Notes: generated from the letters alone by a model not told the origin. 64,000 nucleotides of DNA from a bacterium (GCA_021780675.1 JAJXYH010000004.1:5668-69667); one strand, 5' to 3'. Counted from the stretch's first letter, positions 29,371-41,913 are shown. Numbers and translations are program-made.

Positions 29371-30729
29371 ATGCAAGACTATAAAGATACTTGGAATAAG
29401 ATTCTAGCAGAGGTTGAACTGGAGGTATCCAGAGCTAACTTTCTTACGCTTTTTAAAAGAACGCAAATCCTGTCTATTGAAGACGGGGTAGTGACAATTG
29501 CCGCACCGTCCGCAATGATTGTCGATCTTTTGCAACGAAGGTTTTATGAAGTAATTAAAAAATCAACCGATAAGCATGTTGGGGAAAACTCAAAGCTTGT
29601 TTTTGTTCCAAAAACAATCGCTGAAAATATTGAAAAAGTACATGATGATCCCAATACTCTTTTTGCCAACAGTGGTGTTCAAAAGACAAGTTCTGTGGCA
29701 AGACCCCCAAGAGTAAGAGTAGATTATACTTTTGAAAACATGGCAGTTTCTTCGAGTAATCAACTCGCTTTTGTTAGTGCCTCAACTGTTGCAAAAAAAC
29801 CGGGCGATACCTATAACCCCTTGTTTATTTATGGCCCAACAGGGGTTGGAAAAACCCACCTTATGCAGGCAATTGCAAATGAAGTTTTTAAAAATAAACC
29901 AAATGGTAAGATTTTGTATACGACCAGCGAAGAGTTTACCAACGAAGTTGTTGAGGCCATAAGAACCAACAATACACAAAACATGAAGAAAAAATTTAGA
30001 GATTTGGATTTACTTATTATCGATGACATTCAGTTTGTAGCCGGCAAAGAGAGGGTTCAAGAAGAGCTATTTCACACCTTTAACACGCTCGTTGATAAAA
30101 ATTCACAGATTGTTCTTTCATCCGATAGAAGGCCTGAAGAAATTAAACAGGTTGAAAAAAGGCTTATTTCTCGGTTTTCCGGAGGTTTAACTGTTGACGT
30201 TGATATTCCGGATTTTGAACTTCGAACTGCAATACTTTTAATAAAGGCTAAAAAATATGATTGTGAGTTAAGCATAGATGCTGCAAAACTTATTGCACAA
30301 AAAGCCTCTGATGCAAGGGGATTAGAAGGACTTTTATTAAGAATAATTACCCAGGCACAAGCGCTTAATAAAGATATCGACGAAAGTTTAATCTCTTCTG
30401 TTTTGTCTCTTAGTAGGGACGAAAAAATTAACTCTTTTCATCCCGATGAATTAATTAAAAACATTTGTAATTACTACAATGTTAAACCAACACAGCTTAA
30501 AAGCCCCAAGAGGGATGCTTTTTTGGTTAGACCAAGACAAATTGCAATGTATTTATTAAAAAAAGAGGTTGGCTTAACATTTGTTGAAATTGGTAACCTT
30601 TTGGGGGGGAGAGACCACACAACTGTTATGCACGGAGTTGAAAAGGTGGAAAACCTTTTGGAAAACCCCTTAGTTTCAGAGGATATCATGAGGATAAGTA
30701 AAAATATTGTTGATAAAAATGTGGATTAA
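29371..30729 (+). CDS. dnaA: chromosomal replication initiator DnaA
   Basis: Walker A GPTGVGKTHL, Walker B LLIIDDIQF, C-terminal DNA-binding domain (GGRDHTTVMHG). Confidence 0.9.
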   Translation: MQDYKDTWNKILAEVELEVSRANFLTLFKRTQILSIEDGVVTIAAPSAMIVDLLQRRFYEVIKKSTDKHVGENSKLVFVPKTIAENIEKVHDDPNTLFANSGVQKTSSVARPPRVRVDYTFENMAVSSSNQLAFVSASTVAKKPGDTYNPLFIYGPTGVGKTHLMQAIANEVFKNKPNGKILYTTSEEFTNEVVEAIRTNNTQNMKKKFRDLDLLIIDDIQFVAGKERVQEELFHTFNTLVDKNSQIVLSSDRRPEEIKQVEKRLISRFSGGLTVDVDIPDFELRTAILLIKAKKYDCELSIDAAKLIAQKASDARGLEGLLLRIITQAQALNKDIDESLISSVLSLSRDEKINSFHPDELIKNICNYYNVKPTQLKSPKRDAFLVRPRQIAMYLLKKEVGLTFVEIGNLLGGRDHTTVMHGVEKVENLLENPLVSEDIMRISKNIVDKNVD

Positions 30730-30857
30730 TAGAATTGTCTTTTAACCCCCTTTTTTTACACATTCTTATCAACTCTTTATCCACATTTTTTTGAGGTTGC
30801 CTTCTTGCTTTTTTCCACTTTTCAATATAAACTACTACAACTACAAATAGTAAATAT
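30730..30857. promoter_or_regulatory. dnaA-dnaN intergenic DnaA-box/AT-rich region (second part of origin)
   Basis: TTATCAACT at 30766-30774, a perfect TTATCCACA at 30777-30785, then an AT-rich stretch at 30800-30857. Confidence 0.55.
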
Positions 30858-31964
30858 ATGAAAGTATCTTTTCTTTCAGATAAACTTCAAGAGAAGCTTG
30901 CCTTTTTAAACCATGCTGTTTCCATAAGAGGACAGCTTCCAATCCTTTCTTGTTTTTTAATAGAAGCAGGTAAAGGAAAACTTCATATAAGCTCAACGGA
31001 CCTAGAAATAGGAATAACTTCAAGCATAGCCGCAAATGTTGAAAAAGAGGGAAAGGTTGCAATACCAGCAAAAAATTTTACAGATCTTTTATCTAATCTG
31101 GAAAATAAAAAAATAACTCTGGTTCAGGAAGGAGAGGTTTTAAATTTGACAGGAGAAAAAGTTAAAGCGTCGTTTCAGATTATGAATAACGAAGAATTCC
31201 CCAAGCTATACGAAGACGAAGGAGAAATGATAGTATCGTTAAAACCTGAAGAAATAATGAAATACTTTCAAAGAGTAGGGTTTGCTGCATCTTCTGTTGA
31301 GACCTCTCGCCCGGCACTATCGGGGGTTCTTTTCGACAAGGAGAAAGAAGGGGTAGTTGTGGTAGCAACGGACAGTTACAGGCTTTCTTTACAGAAAAAC
31401 GTTTTCAAGACAACACAAAGCCTTAAAAAGCCACTTGTAATACCGTCTAGAGTAATTAGAGAATTAATGTCGATAAAAACAGATGGAACAATAAAAGTAC
31501 ATGTTTCCGAAAAGAATAATCAAGTTTTGTTTTTAACTCAGGAAACAGTTTTGGTGGGAAGACTCATAGAAGCGGAATACCCCGAATATCAGAAAATAAT
31601 TCCAAACGAATTTTCAACAAAAACAGAAGTAGGAAGAGAGGATCTTCTTAAAGCAGTTAGAATTGCATCTGTTTTTGCAAGAGAGACAGCAAACATCGTG
31701 AGGTTAATAATTGAAAAGTCAAAAATTACTGTTTCTGCAAATTCACCGTCGGTTGGGGAGGATGCCGTAGAAATTGAAGCTAAAACTACGGGGGAAAACA
31801 ATGAAATTGCATTTAACGCAAAATACCTTTTAGATATACTTTCAATTCTTGACGTAGAAGAAGTTGTATTTGAAATGAATAATCCTTTAAGCTCGGGGGT
31901 TTTTAAAATTAAAGGAGACAACTCCTTTCTACATCTTATAATGCCGATTAGGGTACAGGGGTAG
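30858..31964 (+). CDS. dnaN: DNA polymerase III beta sliding clamp
   Basis: 368 aa, three-domain clamp. Conserved LSGVLF, ATDSYRL and IMPIR motifs. Confidence 0.9.
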   Translation: MKVSFLSDKLQEKLAFLNHAVSIRGQLPILSCFLIEAGKGKLHISSTDLEIGITSSIAANVEKEGKVAIPAKNFTDLLSNLENKKITLVQEGEVLNLTGEKVKASFQIMNNEEFPKLYEDEGEMIVSLKPEEIMKYFQRVGFAASSVETSRPALSGVLFDKEKEGVVVVATDSYRLSLQKNVFKTTQSLKKPLVIPSRVIRELMSIKTDGTIKVHVSEKNNQVLFLTQETVLVGRLIEAEYPEYQKIIPNEFSTKTEVGREDLLKAVRIASVFARETANIVRLIIEKSKITVSANSPSVGEDAVEIEAKTTGENNEIAFNAKYLLDILSILDVEEVVFEMNNPLSSGVFKIKGDNSFLHLIMPIRVQG

Positions 31965-32370: not shown

Positions 32371-33510
32371 TTACTGTATCGGCCTAACCGGTACAAGCCA
32401 GTACCAACCAGTACCACCTAGGTATGCAGAATACCATTTAAATTCATTAGACAAAGACGTACAGCCATTTGGATCTCTCACGTGTATATCCACACCTCCT
32501 GAGGAATTAATTCTAACATCATCAACAACAAAAGAATGACCTCCATTAATTGGGGGCCAATAAGCACCAGCAAACAATAGATATCCATTGCTCAAATAAC
32601 TTTTAGCTTGTGTGTAATTTATTGATTGAGAACCAGACTTTAGATTTACGTGTGGATCTTCATATCCAAGAGACTTAAACCAGTTATCTTTTTGGGTAGA
32701 AAATGTCCAAAAACTTGTTCCCGTACGACCGCTTCCCGGTAGGTTGGACCACCCGTTTGTGTCAAAATCAGCCGCAATTTCTGCAGGTCCATGCGTGTCG
32801 CAATAGCTACTCATAATCATTGCCAAGCTGGTTGGGCCACAACCGGTACTAGCAATTGTTCCCGAATCAAAACGCCTACTTGAATAACTTTGCCCCCACT
32901 GACAATAAAATTTATTTGTTGGAGAAGCTTTGCAACCCGAACCTGGTGGTGTGGATGAGGACCCCGAACCGGGAGGCAGGCAACAGATTAAACCCTGCCC
33001 ACAAACTAACCCTCCGGTATCTTGTACCATTGGGGGAGTCAAGGTTGTGCAATCAGTGCCGGCAGGCTTACATAAAGAACCTGTAACGGATGAGCATTGT
33101 GTTGATTGGTTATTAGCTGTTGTTGTTGGTTGACCAGTAATAACAGTTATGATTGCAGTAAAAATGATTACCACCAGTATAACTACTACCACAATTAAAA
33201 CAGGAATAATCCAGGCAGGTGCAGAAGAGACAATTACCGTAGCAATTCGTCTTTTAACCTCTTTTTTTACCCTATCTTCCAGTTTGTTTTTTGCAGCACC
33301 ACCGATATTTCTTAACGTTCCTCCTCCTGGAATGTTGCCACCACTCTGTCTTCCAGACGCTTCGTCGTTGGTGTTACCGCTCCCTATATTTCCCGTAAGA
33401 TTTCTGGACAACCTATTAATTTTAACACCCTGTTTTAAAGTGTTTGGTTTATTTACGCCCTGTTTTAAGGTGTTAGGTGTAGGTTTTCCCGAACTACTAC
33501 TGTCTGCCAT
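32371..33510 (-). CDS. membrane-anchored C39-like/CHAP-like cysteine peptidase domain protein (candidate cell-wall hydrolase of the T4SS-like locus)
   Basis: CQWGQSY...STGCGPTSLAMIMSSY (Cys nucleophile in a C39/CHAP-like context) and a downstream GGHSFVVDDV His. N-terminal tandem repeat KPNTLKQGV x2, one TM, Cys-rich linker. Confidence 0.5.
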   Translation of the reverse strand: MADSSSSGKPTPNTLKQGVNKPNTLKQGVKINRLSRNLTGNIGSGNTNDEASGRQSGGNIPGGGTLRNIGGAAKNKLEDRVKKEVKRRIATVIVSSAPAWIIPVLIVVVVILVVIIFTAIITVITGQPTTTANNQSTQCSSVTGSLCKPAGTDCTTLTPPMVQDTGGLVCGQGLICCLPPGSGSSSTPPGSGCKASPTNKFYCQWGQSYSSRRFDSGTIASTGCGPTSLAMIMSSYCDTHGPAEIAADFDTNGWSNLPGSGRTGTSFWTFSTQKDNWFKSLGYEDPHVNLKSGSQSINYTQAKSYLSNGYLLFAGAYWPPINGGHSFVVDDVRINSSGGVDIHVRDPNGCTSLSNEFKWYSAYLGGTGWYWLVPVRPIQ

Positions 33511-33529
33511 AAATTAATAATACCAGATT

Positions 33530-35392
33530 TTAATCATTTACAATGTTTGGATGTGGTGAAGACGCAGGCATTGGGTCCGGAAGCTCAATGGGTTCTTCTT
33601 GCGGATTTTCTTCAACAACATCCTCAACCTCTTGCGGCTTCTTATCCTTATCTTGCGGATTAGTAGAAATCATATCATGTTCAAAAGGCGCTGCAACTAC
33701 TTGCATTGCAACGTGATTTTGCCCTGCGAAAAACAAACCCTCACCAATATTTGCAGACAGGAGTAGTTGCTTTTCTCCAACAGTTAAATAAAAAATATCA
33801 GCAATCATATCAACCTCTGCAGGACTTTGTTTTAAAAGCATTTGGATAGAAGAGTTGGAAAGCACAGCTTTTCCATAGTCGGTTGATAAAAAATCTTCGG
33901 CATCTTGAGTTGCTGTAGTTAATGCAAGATAGTATTTTCTTGCTCTTTTAGCAACACCATACACAAATGAGGCGGAATCTTCATGCTTCATCATATACCA
34001 GGCTTCATCAAGAATTAATAAGCGTTTTTTTAGGGTTTTTCTTACCTTTGTCCAAACAAAATCTAAAATTATATGCATTGCAATTGGTCTTAATTCATCC
34101 TCCAAAGCCTTAATATTAAAAACCGTAAAAGGATTGGTAATATCAAAGTTCGACTGTTGGTTAAAAAGGCCGCTTAGGCTTCCTTTAATAAATCTTTCCA
34201 GGCGTAAAGCAAGGTCTTTAGCCGCGTTATCTTCCATTCCCAAAAGAACTTTATAAAGATCTTCCATTAGTGGTGGGGTTTTCTTTTGTGTTTCAGGGTC
34301 GGTGGTAATTCCTTTTAATCTGTATGTTTCAACGAGTGCCCTATCTAAAATTGCATCATGTTGAGCATCAAGCTCACCAAGGACTATTTTTAAAAGTCCG
34401 TGTAGGGATAAGATTTTTAAACCAAGTTCATTTTCATCTTTTTCATAAAGTCCGGAAAGATCAAATGGGTTGATTTTTATATTTGAGCTTGATGCAAAAG
34501 TTACCTCCTCGCCACCCACAAGCTCTGATAATTTAGAATATTCACCTTCAGGATCTATGATTATGATTTCTGCACCAAACATAAAATTTCTTAATGCCTC
34601 AAGCTTAATTAAATATGATTTTCCCGCCCCCGATTTTCCAAACACAACTTCATTCGCGTTTTCCAAACTGAATCTATCAAAAATGATTAATGAACCGTTT
34701 TGTTGGTTTATCCCATACATGATTCCTTTATCTTGGGCCAAAATGGCTGAGGTAAAAGGAAAGGTTGAAGCAAGCGATGTGGTATCCATATTCCTGGTTA
34801 TAAAAAGCTTATCTTGACCAAGTGGGATGGTAGACTTAAACCCTTCTTCCATTTGAAGGGTTGCGGGTTTTGGAACCATAAGGATTGAGCTTAGTGTGGT
34901 TGTAAGTTTTTTAGAAGCTTCGTTTAAGTCCTCCAATTTTTCGGAAAAAAGCGTAATATAAAGACTAAATTGGAAAAATCTTTCCATGCCTTTAGCAAGT
35001 TCTTCTTGAACCGCAAGAGCATCTTCTAAAGAGGCGGAAACCTTTGGGTCTACCTGAAGACCTTCTTCTTCCTGAGAATAGATAGTCGCCTCCATTTCGG
35101 TAATTTTTCTTCTAAGATCTGATAAAACATCTGCAGAAGAAGTTGGATATAAGAACATAGAGACATTCATTGAATGATCAAAATTAATTAATGGCTCGAG
35201 CCAGTTTGCGGAAACAAACCTCGGATACCCAACAACAAACAAAGTTTTGTAATATTTTTCTCCTACGCGAATATGGTTAAAGTCTACTTCAACAGAAGGA
35301 GGCGCGATAACATCAGGAATAGAAACCAAATCTCGCTTGATATCTGGTTGTGCATCGTCGTTTTTTACAGTATTTTTTTTGCCGAAAGTCAT
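33530..35392 (-). CDS. virB4: VirB4/TrbE/CagE-family type IV secretion ATPase (ATPase part)
   Basis: IRVGEKYYKTLFVVGYPRFVSANWLEPL motif, Walker A FGKSGAGKSY, Walker B LLILDEAWYMM (DEAW). Confidence 0.75.
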   Translation of the reverse strand: MTFGKKNTVKNDDAQPDIKRDLVSIPDVIAPPSVEVDFNHIRVGEKYYKTLFVVGYPRFVSANWLEPLINFDHSMNVSMFLYPTSSADVLSDLRRKITEMEATIYSQEEEGLQVDPKVSASLEDALAVQEELAKGMERFFQFSLYITLFSEKLEDLNEASKKLTTTLSSILMVPKPATLQMEEGFKSTIPLGQDKLFITRNMDTTSLASTFPFTSAILAQDKGIMYGINQQNGSLIIFDRFSLENANEVVFGKSGAGKSYLIKLEALRNFMFGAEIIIIDPEGEYSKLSELVGGEEVTFASSSNIKINPFDLSGLYEKDENELGLKILSLHGLLKIVLGELDAQHDAILDRALVETYRLKGITTDPETQKKTPPLMEDLYKVLLGMEDNAAKDLALRLERFIKGSLSGLFNQQSNFDITNPFTVFNIKALEDELRPIAMHIILDFVWTKVRKTLKKRLLILDEAWYMMKHEDSASFVYGVAKRARKYYLALTTATQDAEDFLSTDYGKAVLSNSSIQMLLKQSPAEVDMIADIFYLTVGEKQLLLSANIGEGLFFAGQNHVAMQVVAAPFEHDMISTNPQDKDKKPQEVEDVVEENPQEEPIELPDPMPASSPHPNIVND

Positions 35393-36051
35393 TTTTCCAA
35401 TACCTCCTGCTCTGATGGCTTAACTAAATTTTCCGCCTGCTCAAAGTTAATATTGGCATCGTTAAATATTTCATAAAAAAGTTTTACTAATTTTTCCTTT
35501 CCCAGTATTTCAGCTCTTAAATTAACTCTTCCTATTTGGTTTAATAATCCTTCTGCTTTTGAGTGTAGGGCAGATTTTGCGCCAACCGCAAATAAATTTT
35601 GCTCAGAATTGACTCCCATTTGTTGAGAAACTCCACCGATACCGCTTTCCAAAGAAGAATAATAAATCACAATATAGAATTTTTTGTCAAGAATGGTATT
35701 AACCTTCACAAGTTCGGAGATAAAATCTTTATACATTGAGATATATTTTGAGAATAATGGATTTTTTGATTGTTGTGCCTCGTCTGCTAAGAGCTTTATA
35801 TACGATGAAATATTTACCCTTTTACTTCTTATGATTATTTGTACAGGGTAGGATATTGAATTCAAAAGCGCAGCATAAGCATAAATTTTAGCATCCTGTT
35901 CGTCAGGTGAAAGAAGTGCAAAGTTCGTGGCACTTATTTCAAGGACAATACATGCATAACCACCATTTAAAATTACCACATCATCAACAATATCCTGGAT
36001 TTCGGTAAATTTTTGGGTTGAGTTAGATAATTTTTGGGCAGAGCCTTTCAT
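35389..36051 (-). CDS. VirB4 N-terminal-domain-like protein (probable split N-terminal part of VirB4)
   Basis: The pattern VDDVVILNGGYACIVLEISATNFALLSPDEQDAKIYAYAALLNSISYPVQIIIRSKRV follows the CagE_TrbE_VirB N-domain logic. ATGA overlap with the downstream ATPase ORF. Combined length ~840 aa, close to canonical VirB4. Confidence 0.4.
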   Translation of the reverse strand: MKGSAQKLSNSTQKFTEIQDIVDDVVILNGGYACIVLEISATNFALLSPDEQDAKIYAYAALLNSISYPVQIIIRSKRVNISSYIKLLADEAQQSKNPLFSKYISMYKDFISELVKVNTILDKKFYIVIYYSSLESGIGGVSQQMGVNSEQNLFAVGAKSALHSKAEGLLNQIGRVNLRAEILGKEKLVKLFYEIFNDANINFEQAENLVKPSEQEVLEK

Positions 36052-37382
36052 TAATTAAAAAGAGACCTCCTTAATTCTTCTCTTGTATCTATTGATATAA
36101 TTTCAAGCGGCATAATTATTTCACCGGACGCTTTAAATCCTACCGTTTCAAACTTATTTTGTCCTCTTGGATCTTCAAATTCTATACTATAGTCACCGTC
36201 TGTAAGAGCAGTTGCAGAAGCAAATTGTCCCAAAGCGTTTGTTTTAAATGCCCTGACGGCATTTCCCTGTAAATCTTTTACCTCAACCAATATATTTGGT
36301 AGGGGGTTTCCTCTTGGATCTTTAACGATACCAGAAATAACATTTGGAAATTCAGGGGCAGCAACTAAACCAACACTTTTGGTTAAGTTTTGCGGAATAC
36401 TTCTCACTAATTTTGCTTCCTGTGGTTGTAGTTGTGCAATTTGTGGTATAGCAATATTTTGATTTTGCGAAGTCATTTGCTTTTGAATTTGTACTAATTT
36501 ATCTTCAAGTTGTTGTTTTTGAAGCTGCATATCGCTTAAGCTTTGCTGAAGTTCTAAAACTTTTTGATGGGCTTCTAAAAATTGTTTTTCATCTTGCTGC
36601 GAAACTGTTTGTAATGGCGCAGGTTGCGGCGGAGCGGGTAGTGGAGTAGTGGCTGTATCCGGTTTAGGCTTTAACTGCTGTGAGACGTCTTGAATTATTT
36701 CCGGAGTTTTTATTGTGGTGTCTATGGTATTTATAGCTGCTGCTGGTTTAACAGGGCTTGTAATATTGGGTAAAGTTGCCAGCTGTTCCACCGCTTCAGG
36801 TTGCGGAGCTTGATTTGAGTATGCGTGCTGCGGAATATAGCTCGGTAGGTTAACAGGCGTTCCACTTTTTTGATAATGATCAACATTTTGTAAAAACACC
36901 ATTTCTTTTTGGTCAAGCTTGCTGGCTGATTTGGGAAGTGTTTTCAAAAAACTTTGAAGCTGCTGATCGGACATATCAGAAATAGTTTGACGTTTTTTTG
37001 CAAAGTCACTAATTTTTTTTACCTCTTGTTCTTGTAACCCCTCCGAACCCTGTTGATAAATATATTGAGTAGGCTTAGTTAGGGCTTTTATTAAATGCGT
37101 TATCATTACATCAAGCGGCCTTCCGTCTATTGGTAAAAATGCCAAAGAGGCTCCCATAGCGGCAGAAAGAACAGCAAGGGGTATTTTAAGTAGAAAAAAA
37201 AGCGGAGAAATGTAAAAAACCCAAGCAACTATAAATCCCGCAGTAAGGTAGCCGAATTGTTTTATGGTCATACTCCCAATTAGTTTAAACTGGAATCCCG
37301 TAATGTCTTGTGGTATCGGATGGTTTTCGATGTCCATATAAAAAAGCATATAACGTGAAAAATCTGGTTTCAAGAGAATCAA
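36051..37382 (-). CDS. PrgI/VirB3-like membrane protein fused to Q/P-rich coiled region and a C-terminal carboxypeptidase-regulatory-like (transthyretin-fold) domain
   Basis: N-terminal IPQDITGFQFKLIGSMTIKQFGYLTAGFIVAWVF resembles the PrgI family. C-terminal GIVKDPRGNPLPNILVEVKDLQGNAVRAFKTNALGQFASATALTDGDYSIEFEDPRG resembles the CarboxypepD_reg fold. ATGA/ATG overlap with the next gene. Confidence 0.45.
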   Translation of the reverse strand: MILLKPDFSRYMLFYMDIENHPIPQDITGFQFKLIGSMTIKQFGYLTAGFIVAWVFYISPLFFLLKIPLAVLSAAMGASLAFLPIDGRPLDVMITHLIKALTKPTQYIYQQGSEGLQEQEVKKISDFAKKRQTISDMSDQQLQSFLKTLPKSASKLDQKEMVFLQNVDHYQKSGTPVNLPSYIPQHAYSNQAPQPEAVEQLATLPNITSPVKPAAAINTIDTTIKTPEIIQDVSQQLKPKPDTATTPLPAPPQPAPLQTVSQQDEKQFLEAHQKVLELQQSLSDMQLQKQQLEDKLVQIQKQMTSQNQNIAIPQIAQLQPQEAKLVRSIPQNLTKSVGLVAAPEFPNVISGIVKDPRGNPLPNILVEVKDLQGNAVRAFKTNALGQFASATALTDGDYSIEFEDPRGQNKFETVGFKASGEIIMPLEIISIDTREELRRSLFN

Positions 37383-37431: not shown

Positions 37432-37752
37432 TTATCCGCAAGTTCTGAATGAGAATTCAAATGAAGTGGTGTCAATACACCCAACCCCTGTTACACTTCC
37501 TATAAATTTAATGATGAAAAATGACAGCATTACTAAAACTAACCCTAACACGGCAAAGGCAATTGTTTTTCTGGCTTGGTCAAGTTTCTTGGGATCACCC
37601 CCCGAAACTAAAAACCGTATTCCACCTATGATAATAACAATTACGGCAATAGATCCGGACAGTAAAATTCCCCAGTAAATAAAATTTAATATTATTATTG
37701 GTATACAACTAATTGTTGCAACCCCATTAGAACTACACGTTCTCCAGTCCAT
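37432..37752 (-). CDS. VirB2/TrbC-type T4SS pilin-like protein (short paralog)
   Basis: Shared C-terminal module: TM...SGGDPKKLDQARKTIAFAVLGLVLVML. Confidence 0.55.
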   Translation of the reverse strand: MDWRTCSSNGVATISCIPIIILNFIYWGILLSGSIAVIVIIIGGIRFLVSGGDPKKLDQARKTIAFAVLGLVLVMLSFFIIKFIGSVTGVGCIDTTSFEFSFRTCG

Positions 37753-37803
37753 GATTTAAGCTTAAAAGAAATAAAAACAAATTGCAAGTAGGTTTAGTTA
37801 TGT

Positions 37804-38202
37804 TTAGAAAGCTGTGGAGCCATTAATGTTTGGAATGACGACATTAGACAATGTATTAAGTCCAAAGAACTGGAGTATTAAGTTCAAAACCAAGTATGAA
37901 AGGAATATGATTACCAAACCAACGATTGCTGCAACAATATGTTCTCTAGCCGAAGCAACAGCTTGTTTGTCTCCGCCGGATGTTAACCATTTAAATCCTC
38001 CCCAAACAAGATAGAGAAGTGCAACTAAAATTGCTACTGCAAAAATTAAAGCAATCACAGTACCAACGATTGAACCGATATTATTGGAGCTTAAAGCACA
38101 AAGATGATTATATGGTCCTGCACATGCATCAACAGCAAAAGCAGGAACTGTAACTGTAAGAAATACTGCTGCGGGGGTAACCAGTGCGATTGCTTTTTTC
38201 AT
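37804..38202 (-). CDS. VirB2/TrbC-type T4SS pilin-like protein
   Basis: Signal peptide (AFA-VD). C-terminal LYLVWGGFKWLTSGGDKQAVASAREHIVAAIVGLVIIFLSY. Confidence 0.6.
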   Translation of the reverse strand: MKKAIALVTPAAVFLTVTVPAFAVDACAGPYNHLCALSSNNIGSIVGTVIALIFAVAILVALLYLVWGGFKWLTSGGDKQAVASAREHIVAAIVGLVIIFLSYLVLNLILQFFGLNTLSNVVIPNINGSTAF

Positions 38203-38271
38203 GTATATATTTATACTAATAAAGTTTTGATTTGTTTGTCAAGTACCAATTTAGCTTCAATTTAACATTAA

Positions 38272-39003
38272 TTAAAGAGTCGGTACGTTAAAAAACTGTA
38301 AGATAAGATTTACAATCAAAGCAGCAAGAAATACTATAATCAAACCAACGATTGCAAAAATAACTTTTTGTCTGGCAGAGGTTAAAGTCTGTTTGTTTCC
38401 ACCGGACATTAACCAGTCAAATCCTCCCCAGACCAGGTAAAAAAGCGCAAGAAGAATTGCAATTACAAACAAAATGTTTATTCCGAAGGCAAGAGCAGTA
38501 TTGTATTTTACAATAGGTACTCCGCCCGGCTGTCGCGCTTTAAAGAAATTTGCCAAAGTATCTAAAGCAACTGCGGGATTAACTTCGCCCCAATTCCCCC
38601 AACTGTTACCGGTTTGAGTACCATTATTATTTGAAATACATCCTGCAGAATGATCACATTTGTCTCCGGTTGAGCAGGTTAATGTTATTATATTGCAGGT
38701 TGTTCCTTGTGGGGCACCACTGCTTGGAAAGCAATTCTGAGTGGTTCCTTCCCAGTTGCAGTTTTGTGGACAGGTTTTACAATTCCCGCCAGAAGCAACA
38801 CAACAAACTCCCAATCCACCCTGACCACCTAATGAACAGACCCTAGTACTATCAACATATTGATTCGCTTGGCCACAAGTTGTTACACCGTTTGCTACGC
38901 AATCCAGGCATCCTGGAGGAAGGAGCGCTCCTTGGGCAACAGGGGTTTTAATCACGAAAATAAATAATAATAAAAAACTAAAAAAATAAAATAATTTTTT
39001 CAT
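38272..39003 (-). CDS. VirB2/TrbC-type pilin-like protein with Cys-rich N-terminal ectodomain
   Basis: Signal peptide, ~25 Cys in the ectodomain. C-terminal FYLVWGGFDWLMSGGNKQTLTSARQKVIFAIVGLIIVFLAAL. Confidence 0.6.
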   Translation of the reverse strand: MKKLFYFFSFLLLFIFVIKTPVAQGALLPPGCLDCVANGVTTCGQANQYVDSTRVCSLGGQGGLGVCCVASGGNCKTCPQNCNWEGTTQNCFPSSGAPQGTTCNIITLTCSTGDKCDHSAGCISNNNGTQTGNSWGNWGEVNPAVALDTLANFFKARQPGGVPIVKYNTALAFGINILFVIAILLALFYLVWGGFDWLMSGGNKQTLTSARQKVIFAIVGLIIVFLAALIVNLILQFFNVPTL

Positions 39004-39005
39004 AA

Positions 39006-40454
39006 TTATTGATTAAAAATATTTAATATATCAACTCCAATGAAATTCATAAGGGTAAATGTAAAAATTATTAGAACCAGTCCTACAATTGCTGCAGTTA
39101 ATTGCTCCTGCGCATCTTTAGTTTTTTCGGGGTTTCCTTGTGAAACTATTAATTTATAAGCGGAGTAAATTATTAAAAGTGTTGCGATTCCGCCTGCAAT
39201 AGATAAAATAATTGAAAAGATTTTTGAAACTAACCCCTGAGAATCAGTGCTAAAATTACCAAATGCTGTTGGGCAAGTTGTTATATATTTCCCGTTCACA
39301 AGGGTTGTCGTGCAGGGAAGTTGACCGTTGGTAAATCCAGAACCAAGCCCCCCTCCACAACCAACCCCTTCAACGCACTGACTGGAGCTACAGCTTTGGT
39401 AAGTTGGAGAAGTAGTCAAAGCGGGTATATCTGGATGACTTTGTCTAGTACATTTTTGATTTTCCTGATTGGCAAGACTATTAAAAGTATAACCGCTAGG
39501 GCAGACAGCACAGTCTGTTCCTCCTCCTCTGCAGTGTGTTGCAGTACAGTCTGAAGCGCTGGTATAAGCCCCTGTCCCCGTACCTGTATGCACTACGCAT
39601 CCATATTGTGTGCAGTCATACCCGCCGCGGTTTGCATCAGCAGACCAAGTGCAACAGGTTTGAGTTGCGGCGCTTTGGCTTTTGCAGTAGGCGTTTCCAC
39701 TTGAGGTTATAATTCCCCCTGCTTGATGGCAGACGTTATTATTAGCTACACACTCTCCATCTCCTCCAGCGGGTGCAAAAGACTGGCAGGTTGGCGGTTC
39801 ACACTTGTTGGTTTTTAAATTACAGGTGTAACCTGTGTTTGCCCCACTACAGCTTCCATCAGCATTAGCGCTACAGGAGACTGTTAAATTGCAGTTCTTA
39901 TTGTAAACTAATCCACAATTTTTTGTGCCGCAAATTGCTGCTTGAGTGCAGCTTGGTGAAACGCATTTGCCGCTTCCCTGGTCCCATGAATAACCAGAAC
40001 TGCAAAGGCATTCTAAAATCGGTACCGCACCCGATTGGTTTGAATCTATACAGTTTAAACCAAGATTTGGTTTACATTGATACGTTCCATCGCAAGATTG
40101 ACCATAAGTTTTGTAATATGTGCAAACTCCAGTAGTTTTATTGGTATAAGCGAGAATAGAATTGCACGTACACATGCCATTTGGAGTGTAATATGTGGTG
40201 CAAGTTTGTTTACCTGTTGTGGGGTCGGTGACACATGTTTCATGTGAAGTATCTGTAGGGTTACTACAATACGTTGGGTAGCAACAAATACCAGGTGTTG
40301 CACCGCACGGCGCATTGGTGTTGGGCGTGCAATCTACCGCGGCAGCTGCCCAGGCATTATTTTTTAAAGGGGCTAAAGTAAAAAATAATATAAATAATAA
40401 AATTGCAGGAAACAAAAACTTAAGCAAACGCTTCATAAAATTATAGTAGAACAA
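39006..40454 (-). CDS. VirB2/TrbC-type pilin-like protein with large (~400 aa) Cys-rich ectodomain
   Basis: Signal peptide, about 60 Cys. C-terminal AYKLIVSQGNPEKTKDAQEQLTAAIVGLVLIIFTF pilin module. Confidence 0.55.
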   Translation of the reverse strand: MFYYNFMKRLLKFLFPAILLFILFFTLAPLKNNAWAAAAVDCTPNTNAPCGATPGICCYPTYCSNPTDTSHETCVTDPTTGKQTCTTYYTPNGMCTCNSILAYTNKTTGVCTYYKTYGQSCDGTYQCKPNLGLNCIDSNQSGAVPILECLCSSGYSWDQGSGKCVSPSCTQAAICGTKNCGLVYNKNCNLTVSCSANADGSCSGANTGYTCNLKTNKCEPPTCQSFAPAGGDGECVANNNVCHQAGGIITSSGNAYCKSQSAATQTCCTWSADANRGGYDCTQYGCVVHTGTGTGAYTSASDCTATHCRGGGTDCAVCPSGYTFNSLANQENQKCTRQSHPDIPALTTSPTYQSCSSSQCVEGVGCGGGLGSGFTNGQLPCTTTLVNGKYITTCPTAFGNFSTDSQGLVSKIFSIILSIAGGIATLLIIYSAYKLIVSQGNPEKTKDAQEQLTAAIVGLVLIIFTFTLMNFIGVDILNIFNQ

Positions 40455-40479: not shown

Positions 40480-41913
40480 TTAGTCTACGAATTTAAAACC
40501 ACGCCCTTTAACAGTTAAAATATGAATTGGGCTGTTAGGGTTATTTTCAATTTTTTTTCTCAACCTAAAAATTAATTGATCTAAAGCCTGGTCGGTTACA
40601 CCCAACGTGGTTTTTTGGTTTCCCCAAACAGCGTTAATGATGTCTTCTTTTTCTAAAATCTTTTCTTTCTGAGAGATTAAAAATTTTAATAACTTAAATT
40701 CGGAAGAAGTTAAATTATCGGAAATTACACCTTCGCCCAGTTTAATTTCATTAGTGTTTTCATCAACAGTTAATTTAAGACCGGTTTTTACAGTTTGGGA
40801 TTTAATAATTGCGTTTTTAATAAATTCTCCAAATAGCGGAATTGTTACTTTTCCACCGGAAACAAGGAAGATTTTTTCTAAAAAAGGTTGTTGTTCTTTG
40901 TTGTCGATAAAATATTGCTGCTCTGAAGGGTTTAAACTGTTCCAGATAGAGAAAAGCGAGCTTCTTACCGGGCGCTGTGAAAGCAAATAAGTTATTAATT
41001 GGTTGTTTTCGGAAATTAATTTTTTTTCGGCGGTAAGTGCCGATTCAAGCGAAAGAATGGTTAGTCTTCCGTGTCCTGCAGTTAATTTTGATATTTCATC
41101 AAGCATTTTTTTATCGACTTTTTTATTGATTATTTTTTCAAGATATGAAATTCTAAAATCAAGACCCGGCTTGTCTAAGATGGGCAAATAGATAATTTTT
41201 TCCGCCAAATATTCAAAAAAATCGGCAAAAAGCATTGGTTCAGTTACATCTTCGAGGGGTTTATTTAAAGAAAATACAGCAGAAAAATAATATTTTGCCC
41301 TGTTTCTTAAAACTCTAAGGTTGGCAAAAAATTCGTTTGTGAGCATCGGAATATATTCTTCGAATCTATCAAAAAGGAGAATCAGTTTTAAATTTCTTTC
41401 AACACATAAATAGTCAATTGTTTTTTTAAGGCCTGCAAAAAGCACCATTTCATCGTTGAACCCGATACTCTCTTTAAAATAGTTATTAATTACTTCGTAC
41501 TCTTTTTTTAAACCTCTTTCGCGCAAGGAATCTAAAATTCCCAAGAAGATAAATTTATTTGCATCAAATAACGGTCTTTTTCTAATTTCGGAAAAGTTTA
41601 AAAGGACAAAATGAAAATTTTTCTGATTTTCCCCAAGATGAATAAGTCTTACTTTTTTATTGTAAGAAAGGAGCCCCAAAAGATTAGATCTGCCAACACC
41701 CGGAATAGATACGACTTGACAGGAATTGCCCTCTTTTATAAATTTGAGAATTTTTTCAATTTCTTCAAATCTTGAATTTTGCGGGTATAAACTTTCGAAA
41801 TGTTCTGTTTCCATAAAGATATTGTAATTTTTTTGTAATACAAATATCAAGCTAAAAAATTCCCGCGGATTTAAAATTTTGGCATATGAAAGAACGCGGA
41901 GATGAATTGACAA
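40480..41913 (-). CDS. transcriptional regulator: AAA-like NTPase domain (GVGRSN Walker A variant) + C-terminal OmpR/PhoB-type winged helix; immediately upstream of pilin operon
   Basis: VVSIPGVGRSNLLGLL, LILLFDRFEE. C-terminal INAVWGNQKTTLGVTDQALDQLIFRLRKKI...ILTVKGRGFKF. The true start is probably the internal METEHF. Confidence 0.5.
   Translation of the reverse strand: MSIHLRVLSYAKILNPREFFSLIFVLQKNYNIFMETEHFESLYPQNSRFEEIEKILKFIKEGNSCQVVSIPGVGRSNLLGLLSYNKKVRLIHLGENQKNFHFVLLNFSEIRKRPLFDANKFIFLGILDSLRERGLKKEYEVINNYFKESIGFNDEMVLFAGLKKTIDYLCVERNLKLILLFDRFEEYIPMLTNEFFANLRVLRNRAKYYFSAVFSLNKPLEDVTEPMLFADFFEYLAEKIIYLPILDKPGLDFRISYLEKIINKKVDKKMLDEISKLTAGHGRLTILSLESALTAEKKLISENNQLITYLLSQRPVRSSLFSIWNSLNPSEQQYFIDNKEQQPFLEKIFLVSGGKVTIPLFGEFIKNAIIKSQTVKTGLKLTVDENTNEIKLGEGVISDNLTSSEFKLLKFLISQKEKILEKEDIINAVWGNQKTTLGVTDQALDQLIFRLRKKIENNPNSPIHILTVKGRGFKFVD

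Follow-up and report, generated by a model that had tools for sequence, protein, structure and literature searches.

A probable two-gene VirB4 ATPase in an origin-proximal type IV secretion cluster of a Levybacteria-like bacterium

The coupled gene pair and its surroundings

The window analyzed here is a stretch of 64,000 nucleotides of bacterial DNA, and all positions given below are counted from its first letter. Two overlapping genes of the minus strand, here called ORF-A and ORF-B, form the subject of this analysis. ORF-A (35389..36051, minus strand) codes for a stand-alone TrsD-like or “TraC-like” (PF26593) protein of 220 amino acids, while ORF-B (33530..35392, minus strand) codes for a VirB4 core of 620 amino acids, in which a second N-terminal module is followed by a C-terminal RecA-like/HerA-type ATPase domain. 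The two genes share the four nucleotides ATGA (35389..35392, minus strand), so that the ORF-B start codon overlaps the ORF-A stop codon in a translational-coupling junction. The junction reads GAA AAA TGA, such that the ATG of ORF-B (35392..35390) is composed of the last A of the AAA codon and the following TG; it contains a run of five A residues and places ORF-B in the -1 frame relative to ORF-A. A perfect Shine-Dalgarno sequence for ORF-B, AGGAGG, is located within the 3′ end of ORF-A (35408..35403, minus strand), 10 nt before the ATG. A consensus scan of the cluster for promoters and terminators gave counts at the level of shuffled sequence, and none was found between ORF-A and ORF-B.

Within ORF-B, the Walker A motif GKSGAGKS occupies residues 252-259 (34616..34639, minus strand), or residues 251-259 (34616..34642) when the preceding phenylalanine is included as FGKSGAGKS, and the Walker B motif DEAW occupies residues 462-465 (33998..34009, minus strand), both within a P-loop domain of the HerA/FtsK type. 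The coordinates, the ATGA overlap and the two motifs (FGKSGAGKS and DEAW) had been reported in the preliminary description of the locus and are accurate in every detail. ORF-B scores above the cutoff of the NCBIfam model for CD1110-family VirB4 proteins, NF045971 (E-value 1.5e-115, 387.2 bits, cutoff 325), with a match that spans profile positions 180-734 of 752; positions 1-180, which a full-length member carries on the same chain, have no counterpart in ORF-B. Since the match begins at position 180 of 752, ORF-B is short of approximately 180-200 N-terminal residues, in agreement with the earlier remark that the 620-residue protein lacks the usual N-terminal part. Pfam matches in ORF-B are P-loop_TraG, DUF87 and AAA_10, residues 221-574 match the C-terminal ATPase domain of Thermoanaerobacter VirB4 (PDB 4AG5, E-value 6.6e-43), and positions 282-893 of the NCBIfam model VirB4_plasma are matched as well.

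The pair is embedded in a cluster of genes that all point in the same direction. The cluster starts with a gene for a Trans_reg_C protein of 477 amino acids with a C-terminal winged helix (40480..41913, minus strand), which is conserved in two of the related loci (L001 and L004), followed by four consecutive T4SS_pilin (VirB2-like, Pfam PF18895) genes coding for 106, 132, 243 and 482 amino acids (37432..40454, minus strand). Directly upstream of ORF-A lies the gene for a PrgI/VirB3-like membrane protein with a C-terminal CarboxypepD_reg Ig-like domain (36051..37382, minus strand; Pfam PrgI 1.4e-08, CarboxypepD_reg 2.7e-08), for which gene callers prefer a start giving 428 amino acids. Its stop codon overlaps with the start codon of ORF-A in the sequence TAATG (36053..36049), with AAGGAGG upstream. 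On the other side, 19 nt downstream of ORF-B, a Peptidase_C39_2-like protein of 379 amino acids is encoded (32371..33510, minus strand; Pfam PF13529, 9.1e-06). It contains a hydrophobic stretch that looks membrane-spanning and is a candidate for the cell-wall hydrolase of the system; in L004, too, a gene is present at this place. A gene for a 131-residue protein follows, after which the cluster ends against dnaN (30858..31964, plus strand) and dnaA (29371..30729, plus strand; with DnaA domains), both convergent with the T4SS genes. Since dnaA and dnaN adjoin, the cluster is placed at the chromosomal origin region. The same gene order, with rnpA, yidD and yidC on the far side of dnaA, occurs in a relative with an ORF-A homologue of 62% identity, and the placement next to dnaA and dnaN recurs in L001, L004 and L060. 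A Pfam scan of the genes at 29.4-46 kb identified neither a relaxase nor a VirD4 coupling protein. The locus shows the composition of a Patescibacteria-type cluster, that is, virB4 together with adjacent genes for TrsD, a PrgI/VirB3-like protein and VirB2-like pilins, as well as the corresponding location on the chromosome near dnaA.

ORF-A and the N-terminal domain of VirB4

ORF-A has a large number of relatives. A search of one database at E≤1e-3 gave 1240 homologues, of which the best 120 are all 206-226 amino acids long, and a second database contributed 1564 cluster representatives. Judged by these homologues, ORF-A is a real, conserved gene. Its assignment to a family is less direct. A precomputed match to PF26593 (“TraC-like”) is recorded for a database protein that is 100% identical to ORF-A (P0001), where the score itself is not displayed, and for nearly all of the 120 best homologues. 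A local Pfam scan of ORF-A gave noise only, and across 48 members of the family the sole recurrent weak Pfam match was TraC_F_IV (14 of 48, best 3e-4). Against NF041427, the model for the TrsD/TraD family of conjugative transfer proteins, ORF-A reaches an E-value of 1.5e-4 and 21.6 bits (cutoff 200) over positions 12-142 of 201; by this score it is a remote relative of NF041427, outside the family as curated. Furthermore, ORF-A matches positions 98-238 of VirB4_plasma (E-value 1.7e-11), colinear with the match of ORF-B to the same profile.

ORF-A was modelled with AlphaFold2 on the basis of 48 homologues; the model has a mean pLDDT of 80 and is confident over residues 9-199, whereas the last 21 residues are disordered (pLDDT <50); a C-terminus predicted in this way is consistent with the role of a linker. 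When the model was compared with the PDB using Foldseek, the top 14 matches were all TrwK/VirB4 chains of R388 (E-value ~1e-3, probability 1.00, TM 0.41-0.44). PDB chains searched with the ORF-A sequence and with a profile of 48 sequences yielded no match at E≤10, so that the tie of ORF-A to the solved VirB4 structures is provided by the comparison of folds only.

The relationship is made explicit by orthologues in which the two parts are fused. In three of these (L051, 761 amino acids; L048, 772 amino acids; P0165, 787 amino acids) ORF-A aligns to residues ~1-203 and ORF-B to residues ~209-760, with nothing overlapping, duplicated or missing, and the fused proteins differ only by a shorter linker, which corresponds to the disordered C-terminus of ORF-A and the first ~25 residues of ORF-B. 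These fused relatives show that ORF-A corresponds to the first module within the N-terminal domain of VirB4. The preliminary description had taken the upstream 220-residue ORF for the missing N-terminal domain, a proposal that is borne out by the colinear VirB4_plasma matches, the fused orthologues and the TrwK/VirB4 fold. It is very unlikely that ORF-A is instead a separate accessory factor, for example a chaperone or an adaptor, which is merely encoded beside virB4 and is neither derived from nor equivalent to the N-terminal module: besides the colinearity of the profile matches, the fused orthologues, which are 40-50% identical, carry the ORF-A module as the N-terminus of VirB4, and the model of a fused orthologue superposes on TrwK over 649 residues, a length that necessarily includes this module. 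The support that fold and fused orthologues lend to a TrsD-like protein as the first N-terminal module of VirB4 is a small addition to the literature.

Within the model of the fused protein, the order of secondary structure elements of residues 18-175 recurs in residues 218-360. An ancient internal duplication of the VirB4 N-terminal domain was considered but is not supported, as the profiles of ORF-A and of the N-terminal module of ORF-B, when compared with each other, revealed no similarity (E-value 0.29).

A database search seeded with a fused protein returned, among the best 120 matches, ~27 fused clusters of 746-891 amino acids with both PF26593 and P-loop_TraG, the remainder being split cores of ~590-740 amino acids. 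Fused and split forms are intermixed in a neighbor-joining tree of the core region, for which the sampling is biased by the fused query and which carries no support values. For two split cores nested among the fused proteins (P0301 and P0306), a separate TraC-like gene of 218 or 220 codons was found 1 nt upstream. These sequences suggest repeated changes between the fused and the split state. The intermixing of both forms among close relatives, with the split confirmed for the two nested cores, likewise goes beyond what has been published.

A further feature of the family is the occurrence of long tails. Among the 150 best cluster representatives, 103 bear a tail rich in Q, P, S and T, with a length of 52-500 residues, which is also an observation beyond the literature. 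Disordered tails of 57-500 residues on many stand-alone TrsD-like proteins of other Patescibacteria are hints of roles other than the completion of VirB4.

Distribution of the split and its possible origins

An identical ORF-A protein is encoded on nine contigs, and the three of these that were displayed, which stem from three ENA samples, all carry the 220-residue and 620-residue genes with the same overlap of 4 nt. A scan of relatives, with one genome taken per species, added 51 further loci, nearly all of them labelled Levybacteria, Microgenomates or Patescibacteria, and all close homologues come from Levybacteria/Patescibacteria MAGs. In 55 of the 55 loci examined a VirB4 core is encoded directly downstream of the ORF-A homologue. 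Junctions were counted at the 52 loci that differ from the window, where the genes are split in 50 and fused into one ORF in two (L048 and L051, with the lengths given above). The most frequent junctions are the ATGA overlap (23 of 52 loci) and the TAATG overlap (nine loci), followed by gaps of 2 nt (six loci) and 0 nt (four loci) and by apparent longer overlaps (four loci), while gaps of 1, 5, 6 and 70 nt were each seen once. Both the sequence and the frame of the junctions vary, and most of them retain a GGAGG-like motif, which is found at the same place in many loci. Since junction sequences and frames differ between loci, and independent assemblies share the identical junction, the two-gene arrangement is, on the evidence of these sequences, one that has long been maintained with translational coupling and not an indel in the genome of the window. 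The preliminary description had left a genuine split gene and a frameshift side by side, of which the split stands, given 50 of 52 loci and the independent assemblies, and the frameshift falls. It had also pointed to orthologues as a place to look for a fused form; such forms do exist (L048, L051 and the ~27 fused clusters), yet 50 of the 52 loci are split.

The junction could also be read as the site of a programmed -1 ribosomal frameshift, by which GAA AAA TGA would give rise to some fused full-length VirB4 besides the two separate products, and therefore to two isoforms. Indeed, ORF-B is in the -1 frame and a slip of tRNA-Lys on A-AAA-A at the stop codon would read into ATG ACT; moreover, the core is in the -1 frame at 39 of the 50 split loci (all junctions of -4, -1, +2 and +5). 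This excess follows trivially, however, from the fact that ATGA and TAATG are the usual coupling overlaps, and at other loci the core lies in frame 0 or +1. Among the 23 ATGA junctions of other loci, only ~5 have a slippery run of at least four A residues before the stop codon, so that the run is not conserved, and the programmed frameshift was rejected on this ground. The strong Shine-Dalgarno sequence and the ATG of ORF-B argue for ordinary re-initiation, and frameshifting here is accordingly held to be highly improbable. Least probable of all, to the point of being negligible, is a sequencing or assembly indel near 35390, or a recent pseudogenizing frameshift, in a normally single virB4 gene: fused orthologues exist and a run of five A residues is prone to homopolymer errors, but the junction is identical in three different samples, the junctions of the 50 other split loci vary in sequence and frame, ORF-B is equipped with an AGGAGG and an ATG of its own, and stand-alone homologues of ~220 amino acids occur in hundreds to thousands (including those in PMC12102498).

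Taken together, ORF-A and ORF-B are very probably the two genes for the VirB4 ATPase of a Patescibacteria-type T4SS, derived from MPF-FATA, which is chromosomal and close to the origin in an ultra-small, Levybacteria/Microgenomatia-like organism, with the split lying within the N-terminal domain. Weak points of this reading are that ORF-A resembles the N-terminal domains of canonical VirB4 proteins only faintly in sequence, that it scores far below the NF041427 cutoff, that the Foldseek E-values and TM-scores are modest, and that many relatives carry the long tails described above. The split point would correspond to a disordered linker inside the VirB4 N-terminal domain, so that ORF-A would supply the first alpha/beta module (TrsD/PF26593) and ORF-B would contribute the second module of this domain together with the hexameric ATPase domain. 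The coupling of three genes in a row, from the PrgI/VirB3-like gene (TAATG) via ORF-A (ATGA) to ORF-B, suggests that their products are co-translated in a fixed proportion, and we infer that the polypeptides of ORF-A and ORF-B could re-associate non-covalently into a VirB4-like protomer. In R388, the N-terminal domain of VirB4 comprises residues 15-400, VirB3 wraps around this domain in the central subunits, and the N-terminal domain alone mediates the dimerization of VirB4 (PMC9259494). By analogy with both the wrapping and the dimerization, ORF-A would be likely to connect the PrgI/VirB3-like membrane protein, whose gene directly precedes ORF-A and is coupled with it, to the ring of ATPase subunits. 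A more far-reaching proposal is that the free N-terminal module evolves independently as an adaptor subunit, and that its separation is exploited, either by production in an amount different from that of the ATPase or by contacts with partners via the disordered tails, with fused and split states interconverting and a minor -1 fused isoform being made at the present locus; this we regard as improbable.

Following from the two-gene reading, the split marks a natural domain boundary within the VirB4 N-terminal domain, and ORF-A represents a naturally separable piece for interaction studies. For annotation, the name “TrsD-like N-terminal module of VirB4” suits the 220-residue gene, and a pseudogene flag would be wrong for either of the two. 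The domain boundary and the separable piece extend published work, and they open no new question.

Relation to described systems

The closest described system is the TrsD and VirB4 pair of Patescibacteria. TrsD, published in 2025 (Microb Genom), is the most abundant T4SS component of this group and usually adjoins virB4, with 2,272 homologues of which 1,664 lie next to virB4; its remote homology to the VirB4 N-terminus was noted, and it was treated as a separate component without an assigned function (Quinonero-Coronel et al., 2025; PMC12102498). The same study reported that Patescibacteria T4SS clusters often adjoin dnaA, that their VirB4 proteins form a clade nested in MPF-FATA, and that a TrsD homologue is essential in Southlakia epibionticum ML1 (PMC12102498), in which a homologous T4SS was found to be essential for epibiotic growth (Wang et al., 2023; PMC10633639). 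The interaction studies mentioned above would concern a system whose homologue is indispensable in the one Patescibacterium amenable to genetics. As in the described pair, virB4 in the window is directly preceded by a small TrsD-like gene, the cluster includes genes for a PrgI/VirB3-like protein and for several VirB2-like pilins, it is chromosomal and adjoins dnaA and dnaN, and the lineage is Patescibacteria (Levybacteria/Microgenomatia). There is no essential difference, and the locus is one more instance of this pair; where the published account speaks of remote homology (PMC12102498), equivalence is backed here by fused orthologues and fold matches. That the split arrangement and the TrsD/PF26593 family are the norm in Patescibacteria was not known to the author of the preliminary description.

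A tblastn search of plasmids with ORF-A gave matches on 76 plasmids of Bacillota, some of which carry related trios. On pCBG of C. botulinum (NZ_CP006909) the genes for a PrgI protein of 93 amino acids, a “TraC family protein” of 257 amino acids and an ATP-binding protein of 620 amino acids overlap, and on a Pontibacillus plasmid (NZ_CP062975) a protein of 274 amino acids is followed by a CD1110-family VirB4 of 621 amino acids. The order and sizes of the genes (257-274 and then 620-621 amino acids) and the overlapping stop and start codons are the same as in the window, and the small protein is 23-30% identical to ORF-A. By contrast, these trios are plasmid-borne, their overlap is 11 nt and not ATGA, and their PrgI is a plain protein of 93 amino acids without an Ig-like domain. 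On the basis of the Bacillota plasmids, the split trio also occurs in conjugation systems of monoderms.

The TrsD/TrsE pair of Staphylococcus pGO1, which we take to belong to the MPF-FATA subclass, presumably has the same layout, with a relative of the VirB4 N-terminus of ~200 amino acids encoded just before a shortened VirB4-type ATPase. We also take pGO1 to be a conjugative plasmid with a relaxase and a coupling protein, whereas the window contains a chromosomal cluster, and ORF-A stays below the NF041427 cutoff (21.6 vs. 200). Single-chain VirB4 proteins, such as R388 TrwK (PDB 7O42 and 8RTB), the CD1110 family and the product of the fused gene on Carboxydocella pCCELLA01 (754 amino acids), have the same overall fold and order of domains, but in the window the first ~200 residues form a separate polypeptide. 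Since the models PF26593 and NF041427 and a published account (PMC12102498) exist, the pair in the window is an instance of a described arrangement. The two-gene layout is already known, being normal in this lineage and present on some Gram-positive plasmids, and thus represents neither an error of sequencing nor a new finding.

VirB4 architecture and the ORF-A family

The VirB4 proteins are encoded either as one fused gene or as a TraC-like gene followed by a separate core gene, and the two states do not sort cleanly on the tree of the core. Among the VirB4 cores placed together with fused genes, some are split, as in the related Levybacteria-type loci L059 (2343-4869) and L060 (2337-4803), in which a 1-nt gap separates the TraC-like gene from the VirB4 core gene; the fused gene of L051 (4001-6286) served as the comparison. 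Therefore, the fused and split states appear to flip across short evolutionary distances. In the model of this fused VirB4 (P0271, L051:4001-6283) the secondary-structure order of residues 18-175 recurs in residues 218-360, the second N-terminal module, which would suggest an ancient tandem duplication within the VirB4 N-terminal domain. Profile-profile comparison detected no sequence similarity between the two modules (E 0.29).

C-terminal tails rich in Q, P, S and T, 52-500 residues long and probably disordered, are present on 103 of the 150 best cluster representatives of the family of ORF-A, the window's TraC-like protein. The tailed proteins, all of them stand-alone, were drawn from representatives P0136-P0266, and a conserved 'YTTPLVQA'-like motif frequently marks the start of the tail. 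No such tail is present on the Levybacteria members of the family, including ORF-A itself.

Genomic setting of the T4SS cluster

The T4SS cluster adjoins dnaN and dnaA (window 29371-31964, +), and going outward from the cluster the order is dnaN, dnaA, then rnpA, yidD and yidC, a synteny that is kept among relatives (L001, L004 and L060). The cluster is therefore located in the replication-origin region. Many public MAG records with a Levybacteria-type locus (L009, L010, L020, L023, L025, L026 and others) are titled 'uncultured Gammaproteobacteria bacterium', very likely a mislabel.

The first gene of the cluster (40480-41913, -) encodes a 477-aa protein whose sole recognisable part is a C-terminal OmpR/PhoB-type winged helix (Trans_reg_C). 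In L001 and L004 the gene is conserved at this position, and its product may be a dedicated regulator. Located 19 nt downstream of the VirB4 core gene, another gene (32371-33510, -) encodes a 379-aa protein with a hydrophobic stretch resembling a membrane span, a region rich in Cys and a Peptidase_C39_2-like domain. This protein is a candidate functional analogue of the cell-wall hydrolase VirB1; a survey of Patescibacteria found VirB1 much more rarely than VirB4 or TrsD (Quinonero-Coronel et al., 2025; PMC12102498).

Pilin-domain and PrgI/VirB3-like proteins

Four consecutive genes (37432-40454, -) encode products that end in a VirB2-like T4SS_pilin domain. Two of these proteins, of 243 and 482 aa, carry long N-terminal extensions, visibly Cys-rich in the 243-aa protein, which is unusual for pilins. 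The neighboring gene (36051-37382, -) encodes a PrgI/VirB3-like membrane protein with a CarboxypepD_reg (Ig-like) domain fused to its C-terminus by way of a long linker rich in Q and P, a fusion kept in related Levybacteria loci (L004 6765-8000, L059 1192-2340 and L060 1209-2330). Plasmid PrgI proteins comprise only ~93 aa.
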